Positions 51,846-64,000 are shown, numbered from the stretch's first letter. The stretch is DNA of 64,000 nucleotides from an uncultured delta proteobacterium (GCA_963790475.1 CAWBOS010000006.1:256001-320000), one strand, 5' to 3'. The notes: generated by a model not told the origin, from the letters alone. Numbers and translations: made by a program.

Positions 51846-51883
51846 ACCCCATTTTTTAATAAACGAGATGGGGTTTTTGTTTT
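51846..51883 (+). terminator. Terminator-like hairpin just upstream of hsdR
   Basis: ACCCCAT..ATGGGGT followed by TTTTGTTTT. Confidence 0.5.
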
Positions 51884-51915
51884 GGACTCTGCAAAGTATT
51901 TCATGTGATAAGAAT

Positions 51916-54273
51916 ATGAAGAAAGCCTTTAGCGAACGCGATATTTGCTCCAAGTACATTACTCCTGCATTAACCTCTGTCGGTTGGGACCTCCATCATC
52001 AGATTCGAGAAGAGGTCGGTTTTACCAAGGGCCGAATCATTGTTCGAGGAAAGCTGATTACCCGAGGGAAGGCCAAACGGGCTGATTATATTCTTTACTT
52101 CAAACCCAACATCCCCATCGCCCTGATAGAAGCCAAAGATAACACGCATTCTCTAAGTTCCGGTATGCAGCAGGCGTTGGCCTATGCTGATATCCTGGAC
52201 ATCCCCTTTGTTTATAGCTCGAACGGCGACGGCTTTATGGAACATGACCGCACGATTGTCACAGGAAAGATTGAGAAGGAGCTCTCCTTAACTGAATTTC
52301 CATCCCCGGAAACCCTCTGGCAACGATATCTGGATTGGAAGGCGATTCCTTTGGAATCCGAATCTTGCCTGACCCAGGACTACTATGTGGAGCCAGACTG
52401 GAAAACCCCGAGATATTATCAGGTCATAGCTATTAATAAGACTATGGAGGCCATCGCCAAAGGACAGAATCGTATCCTTTTAGTTATGGCCACCGGGACC
52501 GGCAAGACTTTTACCGCCTTTCAGATCATCTGGCGTTTATGGAAATCCGGCAGAAAAAAACGCATTCTCTATCTGGCGGATCGCAATATCCTGATTGACC
52601 AGACCATGACCAATGACTTTAAGCCTTTTGGTAAGGTTTTGACCAAGATTAAAAATCGGAAGGTAGACAAGTCTTACGAGATTTTCCTGGCTCTCTATCA
52701 GGGTATATCCGGCACGGAAGAGTTCAGGAATATTTACCGCGAATTCTCCCCTGATTTCTTTGATCTGATCATGATCGATGAATGTCATCGGGGCAGTGCC
52801 GCCGAGGATTCCGCCTGGCGTGAGATTCTGGATTATTTTAATAAGGCTACCCAAATCGGTATGACCGCAACACCCAAGGAAACCCGATTTATATCCAATA
52901 TCCATTATTTTGGTGAACCGATTTATGTCTACTCCTTAAAACAAGGTATTGATGACGGCTTTCTGGCCCCTTACAAGGTGGTACGTATTGATCTGGACAA
53001 GGATTTCGGCTGGCGTCCGGAACGGGGGAAACTCGATAAATTTGGGGCGGAGGTGCCGGATCGGGTCTATAACCAAAAGGACTATGATCGCGAGATGGTC
53101 CTGGAGCAACGAACCGAAGTTGTAGCTCAGAAGGTAACCGAATTCCTGAAGAAGACCGACCGGTTTGATAAGACCATCGTTTTCTGTGAAGATATAGACC
53201 ATGCCGAGCGGATGCGGGTAGCCTTGGTGAATGAGAATCCGGACATGGTTTCTAAAAGCAATCGATATATTATGCGAATTACCGGCGATAACGAAGAAGG
53301 CAAGCTGGAGCTGGATAACTTCATCGACCCCGAAAGTCCCTATCCGGTTATCGTCACTACCTCCAGGCTCATGACCACCGGCGTGGATGCTCAAACTTGC
53401 AAGTTGATCGTTCTGGATAAATCCATCAACTCCATGATCGAATTTAAGCAGATCATCGGCCGGGGCACCCGTATCAACGAAGAGTATGGTAAGTTTTTCT
53501 TCACCATTATGGATTTCCGCAGGGCAACAGAACTTTTTGCTGATCCCGCTTTTGACGGGGAACCGGTGCAGATTTATGAGCCGGGGCCGCAAGACCCTCC
53601 GGTCCCCCCAGATGAACCCGGAGGAGAAGATGATAAAGATATTATCGGTGATCCTCCTCCACCCGGACCGGGGGGCGATGAAGGGGGTGGCGGAGGCGAG
53701 GAAGGCCGGACTAAATATTATGTCAATGACGTACCGGTTTTTGTGCTCCGTCAACGGGTTCAGTATTACGGCCCGGACGGTAAACTCATCACCGAATCAC
53801 TGAAAGATTACACCCGTAAGAATGTCCTCAAAGAATATGCCTCTTTGGACGATTTCTTAAGAAAATGGACTGGCGCGGATAAAAAGCAGGCGGTGCTTGA
53901 AGAACTATATGAACAAGGGGTAATATTCGAAGCCCTGGCCGAAGAAGTTGGAAAAGACTTCGATCCTTTTGACTTGATTTGCCATGTCGCCTTCGATCAG
54001 CCGCCTCTGACCCGGCGGGAACGGGCCGATAATGTTCGGAAGCGTGATGTTTTCACCAAGTATGGAGAGCAAGCCCGGGCCGTGCTGGAAGCCTTACTTT
54101 TGAAATACCAGGATGACGAGGTCACCGAACTCGACGACCCGCAAATCCTGAGAATCGCGCCCTTCGATACCATGGGCACCCCGATGGAGCTCCTGAAACC
54201 CTTTGGAGACCTCAAAGGTTTCGAGCAAGCTGTCCATGACCTCCAAGCCGCACTCTACGAAAAGGCAGCCTGA
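51916..54273 (+). CDS. hsdR: Type I restriction subunit R, EcoAI (type IB) family
   Basis: SERDICSKYITPAL, ADY..IEAK nuclease motif, MATGTGKT, DECHRG, TATP, TGVD, QIIGRGTR, EcoEI-R C-terminus (DPFDLICHVAFD..LTRRERA). Confidence 0.95.
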   Translation: MKKAFSERDICSKYITPALTSVGWDLHHQIREEVGFTKGRIIVRGKLITRGKAKRADYILYFKPNIPIALIEAKDNTHSLSSGMQQALAYADILDIPFVYSSNGDGFMEHDRTIVTGKIEKELSLTEFPSPETLWQRYLDWKAIPLESESCLTQDYYVEPDWKTPRYYQVIAINKTMEAIAKGQNRILLVMATGTGKTFTAFQIIWRLWKSGRKKRILYLADRNILIDQTMTNDFKPFGKVLTKIKNRKVDKSYEIFLALYQGISGTEEFRNIYREFSPDFFDLIMIDECHRGSAAEDSAWREILDYFNKATQIGMTATPKETRFISNIHYFGEPIYVYSLKQGIDDGFLAPYKVVRIDLDKDFGWRPERGKLDKFGAEVPDRVYNQKDYDREMVLEQRTEVVAQKVTEFLKKTDRFDKTIVFCEDIDHAERMRVALVNENPDMVSKSNRYIMRITGDNEEGKLELDNFIDPESPYPVIVTTSRLMTTGVDAQTCKLIVLDKSINSMIEFKQIIGRGTRINEEYGKFFFTIMDFRRATELFADPAFDGEPVQIYEPGPQDPPVPPDEPGGEDDKDIIGDPPPPGPGGDEGGGGGEEGRTKYYVNDVPVFVLRQRVQYYGPDGKLITESLKDYTRKNVLKEYASLDDFLRKWTGADKKQAVLEELYEQGVIFEALAEEVGKDFDPFDLICHVAFDQPPLTRRERADNVRKRDVFTKYGEQARAVLEALLLKYQDDEVTELDDPQILRIAPFDTMGTPMELLKPFGDLKGFEQAVHDLQAALYEKAA

Positions 54274-54279
54274 TCGATT

Positions 54280-55719
54280 ATGAACGTAAGAACCACCGTT
54301 AAATCCATTCAAGATATCATGCGCCAGGATGTCGGTGTTGACGGCGATGCCCAACGCATCTCTCAGCTCTGCTGGATGTTTTTCCTCAAGATCATTGACG
54401 ACAAAGATAAAGAGCTGGAGACCTTTCAGAAGGGTTACCGTTCGCCCATTCCCCAAAACCTCCAGTGGCGGACCTGGGCCGCAAACCCCGAAGGCCTGAC
54501 CGGGGAGGGCCTGCTGATCTTCATTAATGACGAGCTTTTCCCAAAGCTTAAGGAGCTGCCCGAGGCCGGGCAAAACGGCCGCCGATTGGTGGTGCGTGAT
54601 GTTTTCGCAGATGCTTACAATTACATGAAGTCCGGCCAGCTCCTGCGACAAGTTATCAATAAGATCAGTGAGGTTGATTTTAACAATTTGGTCGAGCGGC
54701 AGCATTTCGGCGACATTTACGAACAGATCTTAAATGATCTCCAGAGTGCCGGCAATGCTGGTGAGTATTACACCCCGCGGGCCGTCACGGCCTTTATGGC
54801 CGACCGCATCGACCCTAAACCGGGAGAAATCCTCCTTGACCCGGCCTGCGGCACCGGCGGTTTTCTGACCTGCGCCGTTCGCCATATGCGCGAGCACTAT
54901 GTAAAAACCCCGGCCGATGAACAAAAAATGCAAAAGGCTCTAAGGGCTACGGAGAAGAAACAGCTTCCTCATATGCTCTGTGTCACCAATATGTTGCTTC
55001 ACGGTATCGACGACCCCTCTTTTGTCCGTCATGATAACACCCTGGCCCGGCCCTATGTCAGCTACACCAAGTCCGATCGAGTGGATATTGTCCTCACCAA
55101 TCCGCCTTTCGGCGGGCGTGAGGAAGACGGCATAGAGACCAACTTTCCGAAAAATTTCCAGACCCGGGAGACGGCCGACCTCTTTCTGGCCTTGATCGTT
55201 CGCTTGCTCAAACCAACCGGACGCACGGCCATCGTCCTGCCCGACGGCACCCTCTTCGGCGAAGGGGTTAAAACCCGCTTGAAGGAACATTTGCTTACAG
55301 AATGCAATCTCCACACCATCGTCCGCCTGCCCAACAGTGTCTTCAAACCCTACGCTTCTATCGGCACCAATCTTCTTTTTTTCGAAAAGGGCACATCTAC
55401 CAAAGAAATCTGGTTCTATGAGCACCGCGTCCCTGAGGGCCAAAAGGCCTACTCCATGACCAGGCCCATTCGATTCGAGCACCTGAAACCCTGTGTCGAG
55501 TGGTGGGACAAACGGGAAACGAATGAGGTCGCCTGGAAAGTGACCATCGATGAGATTAAGGCCCGAAACTATAATCTTGATTTCAAAAATCCCCATACCG
55601 TGGAGGAAGATCACGGAGACCCGGTGGAATTAATGGCCAAGCTGCAAGAGAGCGAACGGGAAACGGCCAAACTGCGGGACAAATTAAAGGCTATACTGGA
55701 AGAGGCCTTGCTTCGATGA
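54280..55719 (+). CDS. hsdM: Type I m6A methyltransferase subunit M
   Basis: IMRQDVGVDGDAQR, GEYYTPR, DPACGTGGFL, NPPF. Confidence 0.96.
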   Translation: MNVRTTVKSIQDIMRQDVGVDGDAQRISQLCWMFFLKIIDDKDKELETFQKGYRSPIPQNLQWRTWAANPEGLTGEGLLIFINDELFPKLKELPEAGQNGRRLVVRDVFADAYNYMKSGQLLRQVINKISEVDFNNLVERQHFGDIYEQILNDLQSAGNAGEYYTPRAVTAFMADRIDPKPGEILLDPACGTGGFLTCAVRHMREHYVKTPADEQKMQKALRATEKKQLPHMLCVTNMLLHGIDDPSFVRHDNTLARPYVSYTKSDRVDIVLTNPPFGGREEDGIETNFPKNFQTRETADLFLALIVRLLKPTGRTAIVLPDGTLFGEGVKTRLKEHLLTECNLHTIVRLPNSVFKPYASIGTNLLFFEKGTSTKEIWFYEHRVPEGQKAYSMTRPIRFEHLKPCVEWWDKRETNEVAWKVTIDEIKARNYNLDFKNPHTVEEDHGDPVELMAKLQESERETAKLRDKLKAILEEALLR

Positions 55720-55981
55720 AACCGCAGAATACATAGGAAGATATAAACCGCAGAATACGCAGAACAAGCAGAAAATTATCTTCGATTCCTTCCCTTCTGC
55801 GTCCTCTGCGTGTTCTGCGGTAATAAAATACCCGTGGTTTTTCTGGTTTACAAAGGCATCTTTACTGTAATTTCCGAGAAGCTTTCTCGGGAATCGGGAT
55901 ATGAACAGCAGAATACGCAGAACAGGCGGAAAAAGACAATTGGTTTAGACCCTTCTGCGTCCTCGGCGTGTTCTGCGGTTT
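55719..55981. repeat. Two palindromic units of a 9-nt-periodic repeat between hsdM and the Abi gene
   Basis: Left arms AACCGCAGAATAC.. (55720, 55746) and AACAGCAGAATACGCAG.. (55904); right arms CCTTCTGCGTCCTCKGCGTGTTCTGCGGT (55793-55821, 55951-55979). Confidence 0.88.
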
Positions 55982-56005
55982 GTGGTATTGTGACCTATTT
56001 TTTTC

Positions 56006-56035
56006 TTGACATTTACGGGATGATAATGGCAAAAT
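56006..56035 (+). promoter_or_regulatory. Internal promoter for the Abi cassette
   Basis: Perfect TTGACA at 56006; TG-extended CAAAAT at 56030 (18-nt spacer). Confidence 0.55.
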
Positions 56036-56040
56036 ACTTT

Positions 56041-56093
56041 CAACAATACCCGCCAAGCCTCTCAACGATGCTCAAATTGGCGGGTTACTTTTT
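56041..56093 (+). ncRNA. Candidate Abi-associated hairpin RNA (antitoxin or leader)
   Basis: ACCCGCCAA(56048-56056)/TTGGCGGGT(56077-56085) stem with 20-nt loop, then TACTTTTT, between the promoter and the Abi start. Confidence 0.5.
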
Positions 56094-56104
56094 GGTGGGA
56101 AGGG

Positions 56105-57022
56105 ATGAACGCCAATAAACCGCCAAAGACCTACCTCGAACAGCTTGAAATCCTTAAGAATAGGGGTATGGACGTCAAAGATGAAGGCAAGGCCATCCAT
56201 ATCCTTGAACACCATAATTACTATCGCCTTTCAGCTTACCGTTTTCCTTTTGTAGAAAAATCCAATCCTGATCGATATCTTCCTGGGACGACCTTCGAGG
56301 ATCTGTGGTCGTTATACTGCTTTGATCGCGGACTTCGTCAATTGGTGAACGAGGCTTGTAAACGTGTTGAAATCTCAGTCCGGGCGCGGTGGGCCTATGT
56401 GCTCGGGCATGCCTACCGCCCTCAGGCTTACAAAGACCCTGCCAATTTTCGGGACCATCCTCTACATACCAGACAACTTGCCACTCTTGATGAAGAACTA
56501 AATCGCAGTGATGAGGTTTTCGTTACCCATTACCGGAACAAATACGGGATGAATCGTCCGCCTATCTGGGCTGCCTGCGAGGTTATGTCCTTCGGGCTCC
56601 TAAGCCGTTTTTATACAAATATTCGGCGAGATCGAGATAAGAAACAGATTGCCCAGACTTACCAACTATCCATTGATAGCTTAAAGTCTCTACTGGAACA
56701 CACCGTTTATCTGCGCAACCTATGCGCTCACCATTCACGGCTCTGGAACCGTCGGTTTACCGTAACCGTGGCTTTGCCTACCTCAAGGCCGCCCGCGCTG
56801 ATCCCGAATTTCTCTCCGACACAAGACCGACGTCTCTATAACTCTCTTGTCCTGCTTATCCATATGCTGCAGATCATCGAGCCGGATAGCCACTGGCCGT
56901 TGAGGTTGATGGATCATATCAGACGTCTTGACCCAAAACTAATCCCTAATATGGGCTTCCCGACCGATTGGCAGTTGCTCCCGATCTGGCAGGGAATCCT
57001 GGGCAAAAGAAATACCGTATGA
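56105..57022 (+). CDS. AbiD/AbiF (Abi_2) family HEPN abortive-infection protein
   Basis: KPPKTYLEQLEILKNRGM, NYYRLSAY, LYCFDRGLR..VEISVR, PPIW..EVMSFG, HEPN RNLCAH followed by SRLWN. Confidence 0.9.
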   Translation: MNANKPPKTYLEQLEILKNRGMDVKDEGKAIHILEHHNYYRLSAYRFPFVEKSNPDRYLPGTTFEDLWSLYCFDRGLRQLVNEACKRVEISVRARWAYVLGHAYRPQAYKDPANFRDHPLHTRQLATLDEELNRSDEVFVTHYRNKYGMNRPPIWAACEVMSFGLLSRFYTNIRRDRDKKQIAQTYQLSIDSLKSLLEHTVYLRNLCAHHSRLWNRRFTVTVALPTSRPPALIPNFSPTQDRRLYNSLVLLIHMLQIIEPDSHWPLRLMDHIRRLDPKLIPNMGFPTDWQLLPIWQGILGKRNTV

Positions 57023-58791
57023 AAATTGATTCCCATCCTTCTGCGTCTTCGGCGTGTTCTGCGGTTTTGCAATATTTCGACCAGATCAGCGAAGCCCCCG
57101 ATTCCATCCAGCGCCTGCGGCGGTTTATTCTTGACCTGGCTGTGCGGGGGAAGTTGGTAGAGCAGAACCCAAACGATGAGCCGGCGGCGGAGTTGTTGAA
57201 GAGGATCGAGGAGGAGAAATACCGGATACAAAAAGCAAGTCAAAGTAAGAAGGAGAATTTTTTTGGAACTATTAAAGAAGATGAAATCCCATTTTCTGTT
57301 CCACCAAGCTGGGGTTGGGCCAGATTAGGGAATATCACTACTTATATTCAGCGTGGAAAATTGCCCCAATATTCAACTGGGTATGGCCCTTCTGTTATTT
57401 CACAAAAATGCATACAACGGGATGGCCTTCATATGGAGTGGGCAAAATTCCTGGTGCCGGAGTCCTTAGAAAACTATGAACCTGTTCGGTTTCTACAAGA
57501 TGGCGATCTTCTTTGGAACTCAACAGGAACCGGGACCATTGGCCGTGTAATTCGTGTTGATCATCCATCCGAGCCGCTAGTTTGCGATAGTCATGTAACT
57601 GTCATCCGTTGCCTTTTTGTTGATGAGAGATTTATCTGCATTTGGCTTCGCGCAGATTATGTTTATGGAACAATAGAGGATCGAGCAACAGGGGCTACGA
57701 AACAGGTTGAATTGACGGCATCAATGGCAAACAGCCAAATTACACCCCTTCCACCTCTCGCCGAACAACACCGGATCGTGGCCAAGGTGGATGAACTGAT
57801 GAAACTTTGCGATGAGCTGGAAGCAGCCCAGCAGAAGCGTGAGAGTCGACGGGACCGGTTGATTACCGCCGCGCTTAACAAACTAACCGATGAAACAGAA
57901 AATAAATCAATTCTAAAGTTTTCTATATCTTCCGCCTGTTCTGCGGTCTCACGGCCTACACATATACACCAACTCCGCCAGACCATCCTCAACCTCGCTG
58001 TCCGCGGCAAAATTGTCTCACAAAACTCAATGGACGAATCTGCTTCTGATCTGCTCGAACTAATCGCTCAGGAGCAACGGCTCTTAATAGAAAATGGACA
58101 CTTGAAGAGACGCATGCATTTGGATGATTCAAAGGTATTCCGTGGTCCTCATTCTATCCCAAAACACTGGCTTTGGGTCCCATTGGCCAAGTTAATTACC
58201 TTCGGGCCGCAAAATGGTGTTTCCCCGAAACCGACGAACGATGTGAAGGCGCCGAAGGCTTTAACGCTCACGGCAACTACCTCCGGCTATTTTAATTCCA
58301 CCCATTATAAGCATATTGAACTGAATGAGGCAGCCTGTGAACATTATTGGCTCAGTCCGGGTGACGTCCTTTTTCAGCGGGGCAACACAAGGGAATACGT
58401 TGGGATTGCGGCGGCATTCGACGGTCCGGAACAATCCTTTATCTTTCCCGATCTGATGATTCGAGTCCGATTTTCGAAGTCCCTGGATCTTCGATATATT
58501 CATACGGCACTTATTTCACCACCATTACGCCGATACTTTTCAGAGAGAGCATCTGGAGCATCGTCTTCGATGCCTAAGATTAGCCAAGGGGTCTTACTCA
58601 ATGCGCCTATTCCGCTACCACCCCTATCTGAACAACATCGGATCCTGGAGAGGATAGACATACTTATGGCGCTGTGCGCTGGCCTGGAAGCCAGCTTGAC
58701 TACCACTGCAACCACCCGCCTTCAACTCCTCAATGCCACCCTTGCCGAAATTTTTTCTGAGAGGAGTGAACTTCAAAAAGTAACCATATGA
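57019..58791 (+). CDS. hsdS: Type I specificity subunit S (two TRDs), start coupled to the Abi stop (ATGA)
   Basis: Two LR..IL.LAVRGK conserved blocks, PPSWGW/PKHWLW TRD starts, two PLPPLxEQHRI repeats. Confidence 0.93.
   Translation: MKIDSHPSASSACSAVLQYFDQISEAPDSIQRLRRFILDLAVRGKLVEQNPNDEPAAELLKRIEEEKYRIQKASQSKKENFFGTIKEDEIPFSVPPSWGWARLGNITTYIQRGKLPQYSTGYGPSVISQKCIQRDGLHMEWAKFLVPESLENYEPVRFLQDGDLLWNSTGTGTIGRVIRVDHPSEPLVCDSHVTVIRCLFVDERFICIWLRADYVYGTIEDRATGATKQVELTASMANSQITPLPPLAEQHRIVAKVDELMKLCDELEAAQQKRESRRDRLITAALNKLTDETENKSILKFSISSACSAVSRPTHIHQLRQTILNLAVRGKIVSQNSMDESASDLLELIAQEQRLLIENGHLKRRMHLDDSKVFRGPHSIPKHWLWVPLAKLITFGPQNGVSPKPTNDVKAPKALTLTATTSGYFNSTHYKHIELNEAACEHYWLSPGDVLFQRGNTREYVGIAAAFDGPEQSFIFPDLMIRVRFSKSLDLRYIHTALISPPLRRYFSERASGASSSMPKISQGVLLNAPIPLPPLSEQHRILERIDILMALCAGLEASLTTTATTRLQLLNATLAEIFSERSELQKVTI
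57037..57067 (+). repeat. Repeat copy translated in frame in the HsdS N-terminus (PSASSACSAV)
   Basis: 30 of 31 identical to 55951-55981. Confidence 0.9.
57921..57947 (+). repeat. Repeat copy translated in frame in the HsdS central region (SISSACSAV)
   Basis: 22 of 27 identical to the 57039-57065 copy; 57930-57944 is a perfect 15-bp inverse of 55917-55931. Confidence 0.8.
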
Positions 58792-58899
58792 AATCCTTCT
58801 TATCCTGTTATGATAGGCGCCGATTACCGATCACTAACCGTTCTGTCGGAGAAAACTGAAAAAGGAACAAATTTAAGACTCGAATGGGAGGGGGAAGAC

Positions 58900-60771
58900 A
58901 TGAAACTTAAACGGCTCCGCGTTAGGAACTTCCGCTGTTTCAAAGATGAAATTGCGTTTGATTTTGATGAGATGACTGCTTTTGTCGGGAAAAATGATGT
59001 AGGAAAGTCTACTGTAATGGATTCCCTTGATATTTTCTTGAACGAAGGTACGCCTGATAAGAATGATGCCTCCAAGCATGGTGATGGGAAGGATCTCACC
59101 ATCATCTGTGAATTCACGGATCTCCCTGATGAAGTTATCATCGATGATAATGTTCCAACTACCTTTCAAGGTGAGTATTTACTGAACGAAAATGATTCTT
59201 TGGAAATTCACAAAACATATAGCGGCCATACTGCAACGCCGAAGTGTACAAATATCGCTGCTTATGCCGTACATCCGACCGCAGAAGGTGCCAATGATTT
59301 ATTGCAGTTAAAAAATCCTGAATTAAAGAAGCGGGCAAAAGAATATAAGGTTGGCTTGGCGGGAGTAGATCAAAAGGTAAACGCACAATTACGTAGGGGT
59401 ATTCGGGACTCTATTGGGGACCTGAAACTACATCCCGTCATGGTACTGCTTAACGAAGAAAATGCAAAGAAAGCATGGGATGGGATCAAGACATACATTC
59501 CATCATTAGCTCTTTTTAAATCTGACCGCCAGAGCACCGATCAAGACCCGGAAGCTCAGGACCCGTTAAGGATGGCTGTTAAGGAGGCTATCAAGGAAAA
59601 GGAGACTGAACTTAACGCAATCGCTACTCATGTGGAAGCCGAGGTAAGACGGATTTCTGAAAAAACCTTAGAAAAGCTTAGAGATATGGACCCGAACCTG
59701 GCAAGAGAATTAAACCCGCAGATAAATATCAAAAAGTGGGATACACTATTTAATGTCAGCATAACTGGTGACGAAAACATCCCAATCAATAAGCGGGGTA
59801 GTGGTGTAAAACGGTTAATATTGCTAAATTTTTTTAGGGCCAAGGCAGAACAACAGGCCAGGGAGCGAAGTGATGCCCCTATCATTTATGCAATCGAAGA
59901 ACCTGAAACCAGCCAACATCCACATAACCAAAGGCTGTTGGTAAGCGCTTTAATGGATCTGTCTTTAGATAATCAAATCATCATAACTACCCACACACCG
60001 GTGCTCGCCAGGATGTTGCCTGACCAATGTCTTCGCTACATTCATCTAAAAAATGATGAGTCTCGGGAGGTGCTTCAAGGCGGTGGGGAGACTAACAAGC
60101 TGTTGGCAAAATCTCTGGGTGTTCTTCCGGACAATTCGATTAGGCTCTTCGTAGGAGTTGAGGGAAAGCATGACATCACCTTTCTTAAAAATATTTCGAA
60201 GGTGTTGCGACAAATGGGCGTGGATGTCCTCGACCTCGAAAATATGGAGTTGAACGGTGAACTTATATTCTTTCCCCTTGGTGGCTCATCTCTGGCGTTG
60301 TGGACTTCTCGTCTTGAGCCTTTATGTCGACCCGAATTCCATCTTTTTGATCGTGAAAACCAACTACCGATAGGAGCCAAGTATCAGGCCGAGGCTGATG
60401 CCATAAACCTGCGGGATAGATGCAAGGCCTCTATCACTGGTAAGAAAGAGATGGAAAATTATATTCACTTCGAGGCAATCAACGAAGCGTACACCCAGCA
60501 GTCCGGCCTCTCGCTGGGGCTTACAACAAATTTCGATGACTTCGAAGATGTACCAGCCAAGATTGCTGAACTCATTCATAACAAATCTGAAACTAAAAAG
60601 CCATGGACAGAATTGGAGATTGATACTCGAGACAAGAAGATTTCAAAGGTAAAGAAAACCCTTAATCACTTTGCGGTACAGTTGATGACGAAAGAACGAC
60701 TAAATCAAGTTGATCCGGACGCTCATGTTCTTGGATGGTTTCAACAAATGAAGCAACTGATCGAGATGTAG
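58900..60771 (+). CDS. OLD-family ATP-dependent endonuclease (ABC ATPase plus TOPRIM)
   Basis: RNFRCF, Walker A GKNDVGKS, signature RGSGVKR, Walker B AIEEPETSQHP, ITTH, TOPRIM VEGKHD..GGS..FDRE..KEMENY; GGAGGGG RBS before ATG 58900. Confidence 0.88.
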   Translation: MKLKRLRVRNFRCFKDEIAFDFDEMTAFVGKNDVGKSTVMDSLDIFLNEGTPDKNDASKHGDGKDLTIICEFTDLPDEVIIDDNVPTTFQGEYLLNENDSLEIHKTYSGHTATPKCTNIAAYAVHPTAEGANDLLQLKNPELKKRAKEYKVGLAGVDQKVNAQLRRGIRDSIGDLKLHPVMVLLNEENAKKAWDGIKTYIPSLALFKSDRQSTDQDPEAQDPLRMAVKEAIKEKETELNAIATHVEAEVRRISEKTLEKLRDMDPNLARELNPQINIKKWDTLFNVSITGDENIPINKRGSGVKRLILLNFFRAKAEQQARERSDAPIIYAIEEPETSQHPHNQRLLVSALMDLSLDNQIIITTHTPVLARMLPDQCLRYIHLKNDESREVLQGGGETNKLLAKSLGVLPDNSIRLFVGVEGKHDITFLKNISKVLRQMGVDVLDLENMELNGELIFFPLGGSSLALWTSRLEPLCRPEFHLFDRENQLPIGAKYQAEADAINLRDRCKASITGKKEMENYIHFEAINEAYTQQSGLSLGLTTNFDDFEDVPAKIAELIHNKSETKKPWTELEIDTRDKKISKVKKTLNHFAVQLMTKERLNQVDPDAHVLGWFQQMKQLIEM

Positions 60772-60817
60772 AAAAATGAGATCTAATCGCGGATACACAG
60801 ATTAATTGGATAGCGCC

Positions 60818-63097
60818 ATGCTAGAACGGAAACCGTCAAAAGTTCAAGCTGGGGAAGTGACCTATGAACTGCATTCTCTTGGCTGGAAAGCCTTTCAGAA
60901 CCTTTGCATTACGATAACCTCAGAGGTGTGGGGTCAAGTTGTCCAGAGTTTTTTCGATTCTCGTGATGGAGGGAGAGATGGTGCTTTTCATGGAACCTGG
61001 GAACCAATCGCCGGCGAATCGTTTCAGGGATCGTTCACGGTACAGTGCAAGTTCACCGCCAAGGCTGACAAGAATCTTCAACTTTCCGAACTAAAGGATG
61101 AATTTGCCAAGGCTCAACGCCTTGCCTCGCGTGGGTTGGCGGAGAACTACTTCCTCTTCACCAACTCTCGCCTGTCCGGAGTGACCGATGAAAAAATAAA
61201 AGAAGCTTTTCAAGCCGTTCCAGGCATCAGGCGTTTTGCAGCTTATGGTTATGACTGGATTTCCCATATAATTCGAGAGTCTCCACGACTCCGAATGTTG
61301 GTCCCACGTGTTTATGGTCTCGGCGACCTTAGTCAGATTCTCGATGAACGGGCTTACACACAAGCACGAGAAATCTTGAGTGCGTTAGGGGACGATTTGG
61401 CGAAATTCGTTATCACGGATGCCTACCAAAAAAGTGCCAAGGCCTTGGTGCAGCATGGCTTCGTACTGCTACTTGGGGAACCCGCTTGCGGGAAATCAAC
61501 TATTGCTGCCGCATTGGGGCTTGGCGCTTTGGATGAATGGGGTTGTTCAACCATAAAGATTCGTGACGCTGATGATTTTGTAAAACACAGTAACCCTAAT
61601 GAGCCAAAGCAGTTCTTTTGGATGGATGATGCTTTTGGAGCAACACAATTCGACTGGGCTAGCACGACCGCATGGAATCGAATATTTCCTCATATGCACG
61701 CCGCAATTCGTAGGGGTGCCCGTGTCCTTTTCACATCTCGCGACTATATCTATCGTTCGGCACGACAGCACCTCAAAGAGACTGCCTTCCCACTAATGAA
61801 AGAATCGCAGGTTGTTATTTACGCCGAGAAGTTGACCAACGATGAACGCGAGCAGATTCTCTACAATCACATCAAGCTTGGAACTCAACCCAAGGAGTTT
61901 AAGGGGAAGGTTAAACCTTTCTTACCGGAAGTAGCTGCTCACCGCAGATTTAGCCCCGAAATCGCACGAAGATTGGGTGACCCTATATTTACGAAGCAAC
62001 TTAATATAACACAATTTGGTCTAGATAATTTTGTAGCCAATCCTTTGGATTTACTCTGTGAGATTATTCGTACGCTTGACGCCAACAGTCGATCAGCTCT
62101 CGCCCTCATATTTATGCATTCAGGAATCCTGCCAAGTCCAATCGAGATAGGCGAAGAAGAGCGAAGTGCAATATCTTATATCGGTGGTTCCGCGGGTGGT
62201 GTCCGGGAAGCACTCAATGCGTTAAATGAGAGTTTACTCATTCAGTCTTTTCAAAACAATAGTCATGCATGGCGTTTCAAACATCCCACTATTCGCGACG
62301 CTTTTGCCACTCTCATTGCCGAGAATACTGAATTAATGGACATTTATCTCTCCGGGACACCAATTGAAAAGTTGTTTGAAGAGGTGTCCTGCGGCGATGT
62401 CGGCATTCAAGGTGTGAAGGTTATTATTCCTTCTAGCCGATATGATGCCTTACTTACACGTATTGAGAAAGGTGACCTCAAGAAGAATGGGACCTTATAT
62501 CAGTTTCTTGCTTACCGGTGTGATCGTGAGTTCTTAACACGTTTCATCGAAAGGCAACCAAAGTTCATTTCGAATTTACAGGTATGGTCCTATCTGTATG
62601 CGGTTTGGGATGTAGATGTCATCGTTCGTCTACATGAATTTGGCCTTTTGCCAGAAGAGAAGCGAATCGGTGTTGTGGCCGCTATTAAAAATTTGGCCGT
62701 TGATACGCCAGATGCTGGTTTCCTGCAAGGACGAACCCGCAACATTTTTACCGAGGCCGAACTTATAGACATTATTGAGCATGTCCAGGAGAGATTGCTT
62801 CCTGATCTTAACAGTCAAATTGATAATTGGCTCTCGAACTATAACAAAGATACTGACGAATCAGACGAATATTTCAGTGAGCTAAAAAGTGCCCTGGAAG
62901 ACTACCGTAATGAGTTTGAGGATTACCATGATTCCCTTGAATATATCGATGCCGGATTGGCTCGTATTGAGAAAGTCAAAGAAGATTTGCGTTCTGAGGA
63001 TCATAAAAAACCTGACTCAGATGATTACTACGGAAAGGACTCACCAGGCAACGACAGCAATGGGTCTCGATCGATTTTTGATGATGTTGATCTTTAA
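60818..63097 (+). CDS. Mrr-like PD-(D/E)xK restriction endonuclease fused to an nSTAND3-like NTPase
   Basis: LGWKAFQNLC..DGGRDG..VQCKF nuclease; Walker A GEPACGKS, WMDDAFG, FTSRDYI, SPEIAR, FKHPTIRD; acidic C-terminus. Confidence 0.75.
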   Translation: MLERKPSKVQAGEVTYELHSLGWKAFQNLCITITSEVWGQVVQSFFDSRDGGRDGAFHGTWEPIAGESFQGSFTVQCKFTAKADKNLQLSELKDEFAKAQRLASRGLAENYFLFTNSRLSGVTDEKIKEAFQAVPGIRRFAAYGYDWISHIIRESPRLRMLVPRVYGLGDLSQILDERAYTQAREILSALGDDLAKFVITDAYQKSAKALVQHGFVLLLGEPACGKSTIAAALGLGALDEWGCSTIKIRDADDFVKHSNPNEPKQFFWMDDAFGATQFDWASTTAWNRIFPHMHAAIRRGARVLFTSRDYIYRSARQHLKETAFPLMKESQVVIYAEKLTNDEREQILYNHIKLGTQPKEFKGKVKPFLPEVAAHRRFSPEIARRLGDPIFTKQLNITQFGLDNFVANPLDLLCEIIRTLDANSRSALALIFMHSGILPSPIEIGEEERSAISYIGGSAGGVREALNALNESLLIQSFQNNSHAWRFKHPTIRDAFATLIAENTELMDIYLSGTPIEKLFEEVSCGDVGIQGVKVIIPSSRYDALLTRIEKGDLKKNGTLYQFLAYRCDREFLTRFIERQPKFISNLQVWSYLYAVWDVDVIVRLHEFGLLPEEKRIGVVAAIKNLAVDTPDAGFLQGRTRNIFTEAELIDIIEHVQERLLPDLNSQIDNWLSNYNKDTDESDEYFSELKSALEDYRNEFEDYHDSLEYIDAGLARIEKVKEDLRSEDHKKPDSDDYYGKDSPGNDSNGSRSIFDDVDL

Positions 63098-63736: not shown

Positions 63737-64000
63737 CTCTTTTTCCGTATGTAGCGTCATTTTTTAATTACGTCAAGTAAATTTATTTCCCCAAACGAAA
63801 AGAGGGACGTTCTTCATTCCATTCAGAAATTAAGGGAAAGTTGGGTGGTTGAATTCATTGAATTGGCAGGAGGAAAATAATAAAAAAATGGGACGCTGTC
63901 AGAACGATTGACTCCTGAATTGTAGCGTGGCTTTTCAGAAGATAACCTCTCCAATATGAGAAGGTTTTTTCTGGTTTACAAAGAAACCTTTACAGGAATT

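Follow-up and report, generated by a model that had tools for sequence, protein, structure and literature searches.

A type I restriction-modification operon lies within the 64,000-nucleotide stretch of DNA analysed here (the window), which comes from the 6.3-Mb genome of an uncultured delta proteobacterium (G000). The Pfam domain sets of HsdR, HsdM and HsdS are all present, and the operon is of the EcoEI/type IB-like class. All features described below lie on the plus strand. The EcoEI/type IB-like hsdR gene (51868..54273, 801 amino acids; ResIII 1.3e-44, EcoEI_R_C 2.7e-33, HSDR_N) precedes hsdM (54280..55719, 479 amino acids; N6_Mtase 1e-74, HsdM_N), and hsdS (57019..58791, 590 amino acids; Methylase_S 8.7e-16) stands last. 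Between hsdM and hsdS sits a defence gene of the AbiD/AbiF family (56105..57022, 305 amino acids; Pfam Abi_2 1.5e-56, PADLOC AbiD 1.3e-76). The stop codon of hsdM is the TGA of an ATGA (55716-55719) whose ATG opens the short peptide MKPQNT. The stop codon of abiD is the TGA of a second ATGA (57019-57022) whose ATG opens HsdS, and the hsdS frame is open from this junction ATG onward.

Copies of a short palindromic repeat join these genes. Repeat searches and folding define the parts that follow hsdM: a segment made of the ATGA, half of a left arm and a spacer ('h', 55716..55744); a 77-nt palindromic unit composed of a left arm, a loop of about 21 nt and a right arm (unit 1, 55745..55821); a short fragment that we call element B (55835..55895); and another 77-nt unit directly 5' of the Abi module (unit 2, 55903..55979). 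The third unit (57019..57067) is truncated. It consists of the ATGA, a loop remnant (GAAAATTGATTCC) and a right arm (57037-57067), lacks the left arm, and makes up codons 1-16 of hsdS. A diverged fourth copy of the right arm lies in the central conserved region of hsdS (57921..57947), where it codes for SISSACSAV. The initial annotation missed this fourth copy, and it did not identify the hairpin of the Abi module as an abiF RNA.

The Abi module

The hairpin upstream of the Abi gene (56049..56085) is the known abiF RNA. It matches Rfam family RF03085 over the full model (1-37) with 61.3 bits against a gathering score of 37 (E 1.3e-10), and it ends 19 nt 5' of the AbiD reading frame. Upstream of it is a promoter-like site (56006..56035), TTGACA-18-CAAAAT with a TG, that scores 10/12 in a motif scan; one such site was found where 1.5 are expected, so the match is weak on its own. 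The site is conserved in four related loci (G013, L134, G003 and L069). A promoter-like site, one abiF motif and an Abi_2 gene follow one another as they do in known abiF modules, and from this arrangement the module appears to be self-contained, with a promoter of its own and an antitoxin-like RNA. Saunier et al. (2025; PMC12373285, in excerpt) report that AbiF of C. difficile is toxic and is neutralised by its RNA, in the manner of type III toxin-antitoxin abortive infection. Unlike RCd22 of C. difficile as described in that excerpt, which has two abiF motifs, the present module has one, is embedded in an hsd operon and would be coupled to hsdS through ATGA. In G003 and L069 the RNA leader is kept and the toxin reading frame is gone, so that two relatives retain an orphan abiF RNA after loss of the toxin gene.

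The palindromic unit

The right arm occurs at 55793-55821, 55951-55979 and 57037-57065, with 1, 0 and 1 mismatches to the query; 100 dinucleotide-preserving shuffles gave no match. The direct repeats that the initial annotation reported around the Abi gene are real, matching at 30/31 positions (55951-55981 vs 57037-57067) and 27/29 positions (55793-55821 vs 57037-57065). The first two copies are the 3' arms of complete palindromes, whose left arms lie at 55745-55773 and 55903-55931. Taken as 82-nt units, the two are 80% alike. Both fold stably, unit 1 with a free energy of -38.4 kcal/mol (z -6.2) and unit 2 with one of -32.1 kcal/mol (z -3.2); the third copy alone has no stable fold (z +0.9).

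Fourteen units from G000 and its relatives could be aligned, with a mean column identity of 89%. Complete units next to hsdS are exactly 77 nt long in four of four cases, and the other ten are 75-77 nt. At the 5' foot stands ATAAAC or ATGAAC, and in relatives ATGAAAC; at the 3' foot stands GTAATAA, GTTTGTG or GTTTTGC. Is the structure itself under selection? Over 25 pairs, 92.9% of the cells in the alignment are paired, as against 92.7% in shuffles, which does not support selection on structure; covariation is absent from the 14 units, with a single compensated pair. No Rfam or other model matches the units.

Every copy of the repeat in the G000 genome lies at the hsd locus and none elsewhere, so the repeat is not scattered through the genome, an outcome that would have told against the cassette reading of the initial annotation. 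Of 13 congeners, 5 have the right arm; of 20 further genomes of the class, 4 have the left arm. Each occurrence adjoins hsdM or hsdS. In all, the repeat was found in five congeners, one Desulfobulbia MAG and two metagenome contigs, only at a type I EcoEI-like hsd locus.

The unit belongs to a wider class of REP-like heptad palindromes (ACCGCAGAR three times, a loop, YTCTGCGG three times), a family spanning phyla that this analysis brings to light. Five other genomes hold 30-87 matches each, against 0-5 for the reversed control. The class is thus multicopy in other phyla and confined to one locus here. At 31 palindromic loci outside the genus (74 flanking ORFs scanned), hsd genes were found only at L069. 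In 13 of 32 matches the left foot bears a stop triplet, compared with 18% at random positions.

REP, REPIN and BIME elements are extragenic palindromes associated with RAYT transposases. Like them, the unit is a short imperfect palindrome of two inverted arms with a stable fold that tends to sit immediately 3' of a gene, where it could influence the relative stability of the upstream and downstream mRNA. Alternatively, the units could be passive passengers that inserted after each of the operon's genes or spread by local copying, with an effect on mRNA stability or relative expression at most. Recombination in the conserved hsdM and hsdS flanks and illegitimate events, and not the units, would then drive the turnover of the inserted genes. 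The dispersal of the class between genes and beside housekeeping genes in many phyla, together with the stop triplets at the left foot, favours this reading, as does a NucS-domain gene on a Paracoccus plasmid that is annotated with methyltransferase and S-subunit genes under a match. Unlike REP elements, the unit has a single locus in G000 and its congeners, where it runs over a start codon, stays in frame and would be translated; a genome with no copy outside the hsd locus is hard to square with a passenger. Among the 20 PF01797 (Y1_Tnp) matches in G000 none is at the locus, and a link between a RAYT and the unit was not seen. On these and the further grounds given below, we regard the passenger reading as unlikely.

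The reading frame at the hsdM-hsdS junction

The half left arm at 55719-55732 (14 nt) recurs at 55745-55758, and the 26-bp duplication in 'h' puts a TAG into the frame of MKPQNT. Removing the duplication yields MKPQNTQNKQKIIFDSFPSASSACSAV in frame. The initial annotation had predicted this collapse, and the collapsed form stands, exact, after hsdM in five relatives (G003, G006, L069, L134 and L135). It had further proposed that hsdS was once coupled directly to hsdM. This agrees with L150 (83% HsdM identity), where a plain ATGA overlap is followed by MSPMNLLTHLDQF with no unit. In more distant hsd loci, too, hsdM and hsdS overlap by a plain ATGA without a unit, which identifies the unit as an in-frame insertion.

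The proposal that the coupling ran through the repeat likewise gains support. In L135, G004, G003 and L069 the reading frame that opens at the junction start codon continues across the full unit into HsdS; the frame is open through the unit in all six loci examined by script, and L135 has no other plausible HsdS start. Translation through the hsdS-proximal unit would then add about 26 amino acids to the N-terminus of HsdS, and HsdS would start upstream of where gene callers may place it. All nine ORFs that precede a unit (hsdM, YhcG, GxxExxY and AbiD) end in the ATGA of that unit, a regularity that argues against passive passengers. The excerpted text of PMC3510504 describes translational coupling of hsdM and hsdS in EcoKI through a 1-nt overlap. 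Judging from the reading frames, a comparable coupling probably runs from hsdM to hsdS across the inserted ORFs.

Different genes between the same repeats

The genes between the units vary, as the initial annotation anticipated. AbiD is the cargo in G000 and G013. G004 carries YhcG/DUF1016 (PADLOC PDC-S02, 2.8e-138) and GxxExxY (PDDEXK_3, 2.4e-42), L135 carries YhcG, L134 carries GxxExxY followed by an Abi leader, and G011 carries a second type of YhcG; the slots of G003 and L069 hold remnants only. The arrays read unit-YhcG relic-unit-Abi-truncated unit in G000 and unit-YhcG-unit-GxxExxY-unit in G004. Element B is the YhcG relic in the first of these. It is 83.8% identical to the YhcG reading frame of L069 and 90.6% identical over 53 nt to positions 63966-64018, part of a second YhcG pseudogene fragment that explains it. 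This fragment begins at 63893, runs past the end of the window (63893..64000 within it) and lies outside the slot; tblastn gives 56-58% identity to YhcG over 36 amino acids, with an in-frame stop (E 3e-7). The initial annotation was right that the Abi gene is flanked by repeats, and wrong to count the stretch from unit 1 to unit 2 in the Abi module.

Two comparisons show clean unit-to-unit states. G013 has hsdM-unit-Abi where G000 has hsdM-unit-YhcG relic-unit-Abi, and L134 has unit-GxxExxY where G004 has unit-YhcG-unit-GxxExxY. The coexistence of such states with two-unit states again speaks against passengers. The proposed cassette-exchange slot thus gains support from variable cargo and clean losses, and loses some from the lack of a recombinase and of a strictly empty hsdM-unit-hsdS allele, for which the count is 0 of 9 loci; the empty site that the initial annotation proposed to look for among relatives was not found. 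No excised circle or joint is listed among the available Logan contigs, whose low depth would not reveal an absence.

Other loci are less orderly. In G000 (the relic), G003 and L069, cassettes have decayed by internal deletions that bypass the units, and some duplicated segments extend into the hsdM tail. Cargo lies without an upstream unit in G011, and L151 has a small inserted ORF coupled through ATGA with no unit at all. The unit is therefore not needed for embedding, a point in favour of the passenger reading. Nor is the hairpin required at the joint between Abi and hsdS, since in G000 and G013 the left arm is gone from this joint, which forms no stable fold. The order of cassettes also appears to differ: GxxExxY precedes Abi in L134, and in L069 and G003 an Abi leader precedes one resembling the leader 5' of GxxExxY.

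Could the arrangement in G000 be a mis-joining of the MAG at short repeats? Short-read Logan contigs of run X1 do break at unit 1 (one piece ends at 55816), no X1 contig covers 55826-56167, and contamination of G000 is reported as 9.68%. Against this, the independent genome G013 has the same order of unit, Abi, right arm and hsdS at 88% identity, and seven further independent loci have the unit at matching junctions. Two stretches, 56366-56931 and 56990-57203, agree fully with X1 contigs, and the second spans the joint between Abi and hsdS. An assembly artefact is thus hardly credible.

Breakpoints

Over 529 nt comprising the end of hsdM and unit 1, L069 and L134 are 97.5% identical; immediately beyond the right arm the two diverge, precisely where a passive passenger would give no reason to. 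In six of seven comparisons, homology to G000 on the hsdM side stops no more than 10 nt from where unit 1 ends; G011, which is without the unit, is homologous up to the hsdM stop. On the hsdS side homology begins either with the ATGA or with the right arm. The left edge of the cassette falls directly after ...CTGCGGT, and the right edge is the ATGA before AACCGCAG.

Different parts of the G000 operon have different nearest relatives. Its hsdM is closest in nucleotide sequence to those of G011 (92%) and G004 (91%); its Abi cassette is shared with G013 (88% over 1298 nt, as against 84% in hsdM); and its first and second target-recognition domains (TRDs) are nearest to those of L069 (81%) and G003 (86%), respectively. 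Such mosaicism is typical of recombination. Cassettes common to several loci are 74-88% identical, so exchange, if any, is not recent.

The TRDs of HsdS are known to reassort by recombination in conserved regions. The different nearest relatives of TRD1 and TRD2 in G000 fit this pattern and, since other type I systems do the same, would also be expected if the units were passengers. Unlike known HsdS reassortment, a single repeat family here bounds both accessory genes and TRD halves: the repeat found on either side of the embedded genes also stands before TRD1, and the diverged right arm stands before the second conserved region. This fourth right-arm copy is present in hsdS of G000, G004, G013, G003, L069 and L135, and absent from HsdS of L149 and L150.

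Discussion

PrrC is one gene embedded in a type I restriction-modification operon. That defence genes occupy such operons is already established (PMC11411939); further cases are TgvAB of Vibrio cholerae VPI-2, RloF of Campylobacter and the embedded candidates of Payne. The present locus resembles these systems in that defence families (AbiD, YhcG of PDC-S02, and the PD-(D/E)XK protein GxxExxY) sit in the hsd operon and vary between relatives. Unlike them, each ORF here is bounded by direct copies of a palindromic unit that supplies the ATGA, and the unit itself would be translated into HsdS. Flanking repeats are not mentioned for the embedded systems in the excerpt of PMC11411939, and no flanking repeat is described in the titles and abstract openings of the best matches listed for genes inserted between hsdM and hsdS.

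How might the cassettes move? We lean towards ordinary homologous recombination between repeat copies, with no dedicated recombinase, as the means by which repeat-bounded genes are gained and lost at the hsdM-hsdS junction. The ATGA would let each inserted ORF pass ribosomes to the next, so that hsdS would stay translationally coupled whatever the insert. Direct repeats of about 80 bp would be long enough for recombination to remove a cassette precisely, could allow a cassette with its unit to be re-inserted, and might support allele exchange after horizontal transfer of the locus. Differential loss from an older array of YhcG, GxxExxY and Abi cassettes can account for most of the cargo states; no gain event was demonstrated among the nine loci compared.

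The locus also recalls an integron. Integron cassettes combine a single ORF with an imperfect palindrome (attC), are mostly promoterless and have their edges at the palindrome foot; clusters of attC sites without an integrase are known as CALINs. The attC cores read RYYYAAC (R'') and GTTRRRY (R'). Here, too, single-ORF cassettes lie in tandem with their edges at both palindrome feet, and each has an imperfect palindrome that is comparable in size (about 80 nt) and contains internal mismatches. Most lack a promoter and the toxin-antitoxin-like one has a promoter-like site; toxin-antitoxin cassettes of integrons carry their own promoter. One could imagine an integron-like or HUH/IS200-like system in which a recombinase or nickase, acting in trans, recognises the foot of the unit, and circles of ORF plus unit are excised and inserted at another unit. 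The Y1_Tnp proteins of G000 could supply such an activity, and the apparent variation in cassette order (L134 vs L069 and G003) would fit.

Several observations weigh against site-specific exchange. No integrase or recombinase gene lies in or beside the locus, in agreement with the initial annotation, and for the integron integrase model TIGR02249 none of 25 matches exceeds the 265-bit cut-off (the best has 105 bits). The ends of the unit have only AAC...GTT in common with the attC cores, and the units are conserved in sequence, not merely in structure. The genome holds neither a Y1_Tnp gene at the locus nor a unit elsewhere, unlike an active REP or PATE population. Unlike integron cassettes, the units belong to an operon whose genes are probably coupled in translation, and would themselves be translated. 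The shared cassettes are old. Remnants, internal deletions, imprecise joints and duplicated hsdM-tail segments are common, and fit homologous or illegitimate recombination better than precise integron-like exchange. We therefore consider a site-specific system quite improbable.

A doubtful, more speculative reading makes the unit a portable docking joint: a REPIN-like hairpin with a built-in ATGA, at whose feet an ORF or half of an HsdS might plug in or drop out through a trans-acting hairpin-directed enzyme or through template switches at stalled forks. If true, the locus would be an integron-like cassette platform without an integrase inside a type I restriction-modification system.

Homologous recombination between the units would offer a testable route by which embedded defence genes enter and leave restriction-modification operons without breaking them. 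One repeat, at every gene boundary, combines a stop/start overlap with about 80 bp of homology, and the modular gain and loss that it may permit would extend to defence genes and to the halves of the recognition domain alike.

Organization of the locus and its repeats

The locus consists of hsdR (51868-54273), hsdM (54280-55719), a gene of the AbiD/Abi_2 family (56105-57022) and hsdS (57019-58791). Because HsdR carries an EcoEI_R_C domain, we place the restriction system near the type IB enzymes. Genes for an AAA_15/AriA-like ATPase and then an nSTAND3 NTPase lie 3' of hsdS (58810-63097). Both are defence-type genes: the ATPase matches the PADLOC model AriA (7.9e-61) and also the Old and GajA models, and the NTPase matches PDC-S73 (8.8e-32). 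The genes in this position differ among relatives.

The initial annotation described the Abi gene as bracketed by direct copies of a palindromic repeat, and these copies are indeed present. Three right-arm copies, at 55793-55821, 55951-55979 and 57037-57065, deviate by no more than one mismatch each; none of 100 shuffled sequences contained a match. The first two copies are the 3' arms of full 77-nt palindromes (55745-55821 and 55903-55979), with predicted folds of -38.4 kcal/mol (z -6.2) and -32.1 kcal/mol (z -3.2), respectively. The third consists of loop and right arm alone; the end of AbiD takes the place of the left arm, and the copy does not fold by itself. A terminator scan listed none of the units on the + strand, and we rejected this function for them. 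Nor did covariation back the hairpin in 14 units, a comparison that is uninformative because the columns are nearly invariant; we counted it against a dedicated cassette machine. By eye, there is no convincing sigma-70 promoter match within element B, which lies between units 1 and 2 (55835-55895).

We consider an artefact of assembly hardly credible. One public sequencing run contained 0.66 of the words and eight contained at most 0.08. Four of these runs, mapped on the locus to look for empty or excised alleles, yielded short contigs of low depth and no joints, with 55826-56167 uncovered.

The unit is an in-frame insertion at the hsdM-hsdS junction

In HsdM relatives of at most 83% identity, hsdS directly follows hsdM. 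At L150, one of the more distant hsd loci, the two genes share the classical ATGA overlap and HsdS begins MSPMNLLTHLDQF. In the present clade, the junction ATG stands about 26 codons ahead of the homologous LQYFDQ, and these codons are the palindrome, which reads as MKPQNTQNRQK, loop, SASSACSAV. No stop interrupts the frame between the junction start codon and the conserved HsdS helix, unit included, in 6/6 loci examined by script, nor by eye in congener G011. The metagenome contig L135 offers no alternative plausible hsdS start codon. All complete units next to hsdS (4/4) measure exactly 77 nt; ten other units, where stops are possible, are 75-77 nt long. Given the distant loci without a unit and the open frame in the clade, this REP-like unit was inserted in frame at the ATGA junction, behind the stop codon of hsdM. 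The open frame, the lack of another start in L135 and the constant unit length indicate that it is translated as part of the predicted HsdS. At another distant locus (L149, genome G087, 275-370), an unrelated inverted repeat of ~80 nt separates the stop of hsdM from the start of hsdS.

The conserved central part of hsdS contains a fourth, diverged right arm (57921-57947), which codes for SISSACSAV. This copy stands just ahead of the second conserved HsdS helix in each of the clade's six hsdS genes and is absent from the more distant HsdS of L149 and L150. As direct repeats ~885 nt apart, the N-terminal and central copies enclose the first target-recognition domain (TRD1). A candidate left-arm relic midway through hsdS (ATGAAACAGAAAAT...) was rejected, as its peptide TDETENKSILKF is matched by DQEQDAKFSF of L150, which has no unit; the right arm alone is shared.

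Distribution of the repeat

The initial annotation had called for a genome-wide search, by which a scattered repeat would be recognized. By pattern search and blastn, all copies in this 6.3-Mb genome lie at the hsd locus. The right arm was found in 5 of 13 congeners searched and the left arm in four other genomes of the class (21 genomes including that of the window), every time at the orthologous hsd locus. Further copies of the subfamily are few: they lie in a Desulfobulbia MAG, there at the hsd locus (L069; HsdM 94% identical), on two metagenome contigs (L134 and L135) and, as a single copy behind an unrelated gene, in a Nitrospirota MAG (L038). Of the metagenome patterns for hsdS-proximal units, the first matched nothing and the second matched two contigs. 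The viral contigs searched gave no match and the plasmids one weak match, on NZ_CP067132.1 of Paracoccus seriniphilus (275132-276653). Under it lie genes for a NucS-domain endonuclease and for the methyltransferase and S subunit of a related type I system; the NucS-domain gene may be another embedded gene. In a collection of 5.8 billion proteins, the unit-coded N-terminus was present in two of five near-length candidates, one being the query itself, and in no shorter protein. This HsdS subfamily is either rare in the database or called from other starts.

REP-like palindromes are well known. A loose right-arm pattern, scanned against one genome per species, matched 111 stretches in many phyla, including archaea, and 38 of 83 hits examined (77 loci) had a palindromic partner. 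The architecture is ACCGCAGAR three times, a loop, and YTCTGCGG three times, multicopy and intergenic, in Planctomycetes, Verrucomicrobia, Acidobacteria, Chloroflexi, Nitrospirota, Sporomusa and Methanosarcinaceae (loci L024-L102). With up to three mismatches, five genomes (G408-G412) contained 30-87 matches each, compared with 0-5 in a reversed control. Of 32 hits, 13 have a stop triplet at the left foot, versus 18% at random positions, a modest enrichment counted without regard to frame. Because the pattern is palindromic, multicopy and gene-adjacent in other phyla, we count the unit among heptad palindromes of a REP-like class.

The units might be passive passengers of this class. Outside the genus, the palindromic loci adjoin ordinary housekeeping genes, and a Pfam scan of 74 flanking ORFs found hsd genes at L069 only and a GxxExxY gene at one locus. 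In this lineage, however, the unit is restricted to one horizontally mobile locus, where direct copies mark off the embedded genes as well as the hsdS start. We regard mere passengers as rather unlikely.

Cargo changes at the feet of the units

What lies between the units in relatives? Congener G013 has, from hsdM to hsdS, a short duplication (h, the 26-bp repeat ahead of the unit), a unit, AbiD and a right arm. G004 carries h, a unit, a degenerate unit, YhcG, h, a unit, GxxExxY, h and a unit. L135 has YhcG between two units, and L134 has a unit, GxxExxY, a unit and an Abi leader, at which the contig ends. In congener G003 and in L069, a unit is followed by an internally deleted YhcG, a (degenerate) unit, an abiF-RNA leader without an Abi ORF, and a unit. 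In G011 there is no unit behind hsdM, only a different YhcG and a right arm. The G004 proteins match YhcG/DUF1016 (PADLOC PDC-S02, 2.8e-138) and PDDEXK_3 (GxxExxY, 2.4e-42). The prediction that relatives would carry different cargo between the same repeats was thus borne out, whereas its companion, an empty site, was not: a strictly empty allele occurs in 0/9 loci.

Several of these loci look degraded. The hsdM of G003 (L021) matches in shifted pieces, the hsdS of G004 (L019) is split into ORFs of 92 and 341 aa, and in G006 (L023) the left arm is fused directly onto a TRD fragment.

Between units 1 and 2, the window sequence is 84% identical to part of the L069 YhcG reading frame and 90.6% identical over 53 nt to a second YhcG fragment at 63893-64030. 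The present locus thus carries the remains of a decayed YhcG cassette and, behind it, an intact Abi cassette. The second fragment, a YhcG/DUF1016 N-domain pseudogene with an in-frame stop, lies 3' of the nSTAND3 gene and runs from 63893 to beyond the window (contig C6, ~320030). Element B and its copy at ~63964-64022 were considered as the outer bracket of an 8-kb insertion and rejected, both being fragments of YhcG coding sequence.

The breaks between cargoes fall at the unit feet. ORF ends preceding a unit have ATGA fused to AACCGCAG in 9/9 cases, and every cargo type starts right behind ...CTGCGGT, each with its own characteristic sequence. L069 and L134 are 97.5% identical across 529 nt of hsdM end and unit 1 and diverge directly behind the right arm, where L069 continues with a YhcG remnant and L134 with GxxExxY. 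On the hsdM side, homology to the window stops no more than 10 nt from where unit 1 ends in six of seven comparisons and, in G011, at the hsdM stop; on the hsdS side it starts at the ATGA or the right arm. Clean one-unit and two-unit states stand side by side (G013 versus the window; L134 versus G004), as is expected of recombination between direct units.

Reassortment of TRDs is a known property of type I systems. The hsdM of the window is nearest that of G011 (92%), then G004 (91%); the Abi cassette is common to G013 (88% over 1298 nt, versus 84% in hsdM), TRD1 to L069 (81%) and TRD2 to G003 (86%). Judged by these identities, the histories of the modules are discordant.

The Abi cassette

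The hairpin 5' of AbiD (56049-56085) is the abiF RNA motif RF03085, with 61.3 bits where the gathering score is 37, and a promoter-like site (TTGACA-18-CAAAAT) lies ahead of it. With these two elements preceding AbiD, the cassette would be a self-contained toxin/RNA-antitoxin-like module. The abiF/AbiF module is itself already known: in Clostridioides difficile, an RNA with two abiF motifs acts like a type III antitoxin and neutralizes the toxin AbiF, as PMC12373285 reports. G003 (L021) and L069 (4760-4870) have kept the promoter-like site and the RNA and lost the Abi ORF; this orphan antitoxin-like RNA directly precedes the last unit and hsdS. Among the AbiD relatives from 401 genomes, searched to find the gene in other contexts, that of G013 alone is close (92%). 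Seven others are at most 41% identical, and one of the seven has an hsdM-like gene within 1.5 kb.

How the cassettes may turn over

A dedicated cassette machine is difficult to reconcile with these data. The earlier statement that no integrase or recombinase is visible holds: 0/25 matches to integron integrase pass the cut-off, and the locus contains no recombinase gene. All 20 Y1_Tnp matches of the genome lie away from it. These IS200/IS605-type matches (PF01797; for example C10:971384-971743 and C6:223032-223358) include several identical copies, and some of the open frames are long (~290-330 aa), none near the hsd locus. The attC cores are missing at the unit feet. Cassettes also decay by internal deletion, and cargo is embedded without units in G011 (YhcG) and in the distant locus L151 (a small ATGA-coupled ORF). 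The latter (genome G127, 270-640) is by eye similar to a ribbon-helix-helix antitoxin; its ATGA overlaps the hsdS start. The leader before GxxExxY and the segment before the last unit of G003 and L069 resemble the hsdM tail, from which we conclude that duplications at times reach past the unit. Finally, shared cassettes are only 74-88% identical, so the loss of different members of an old array may largely account for the present states. A trans-acting system directed to the hairpins of the units is improbable in our view.

Defence genes embedded in type I loci are already on record (PMC11411939). What appears new in these sequences, and what we have not found described, is the combination: a single palindromic unit that brings its own ATGA, is read as part of HsdS and bounds embedded genes. 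A limited survey of top-ranked literature yielded no description of such a unit, and among the papers listed none naming GxxExxY was on the present topic, by title or abstract start.

We lean towards an ATGA-coupled unit with RecA-type turnover of cassettes. Stop/start coupling is reported as demonstrated for hsdM-hsdS of EcoKI (PMC3510504), and the ATGA of each unit would preserve such coupling along the operon. The direct repeats of ~80 bp would serve as substrates for RecA-type recombination, and events at the units could delete, re-insert or swap both cassettes and halves of HsdS.
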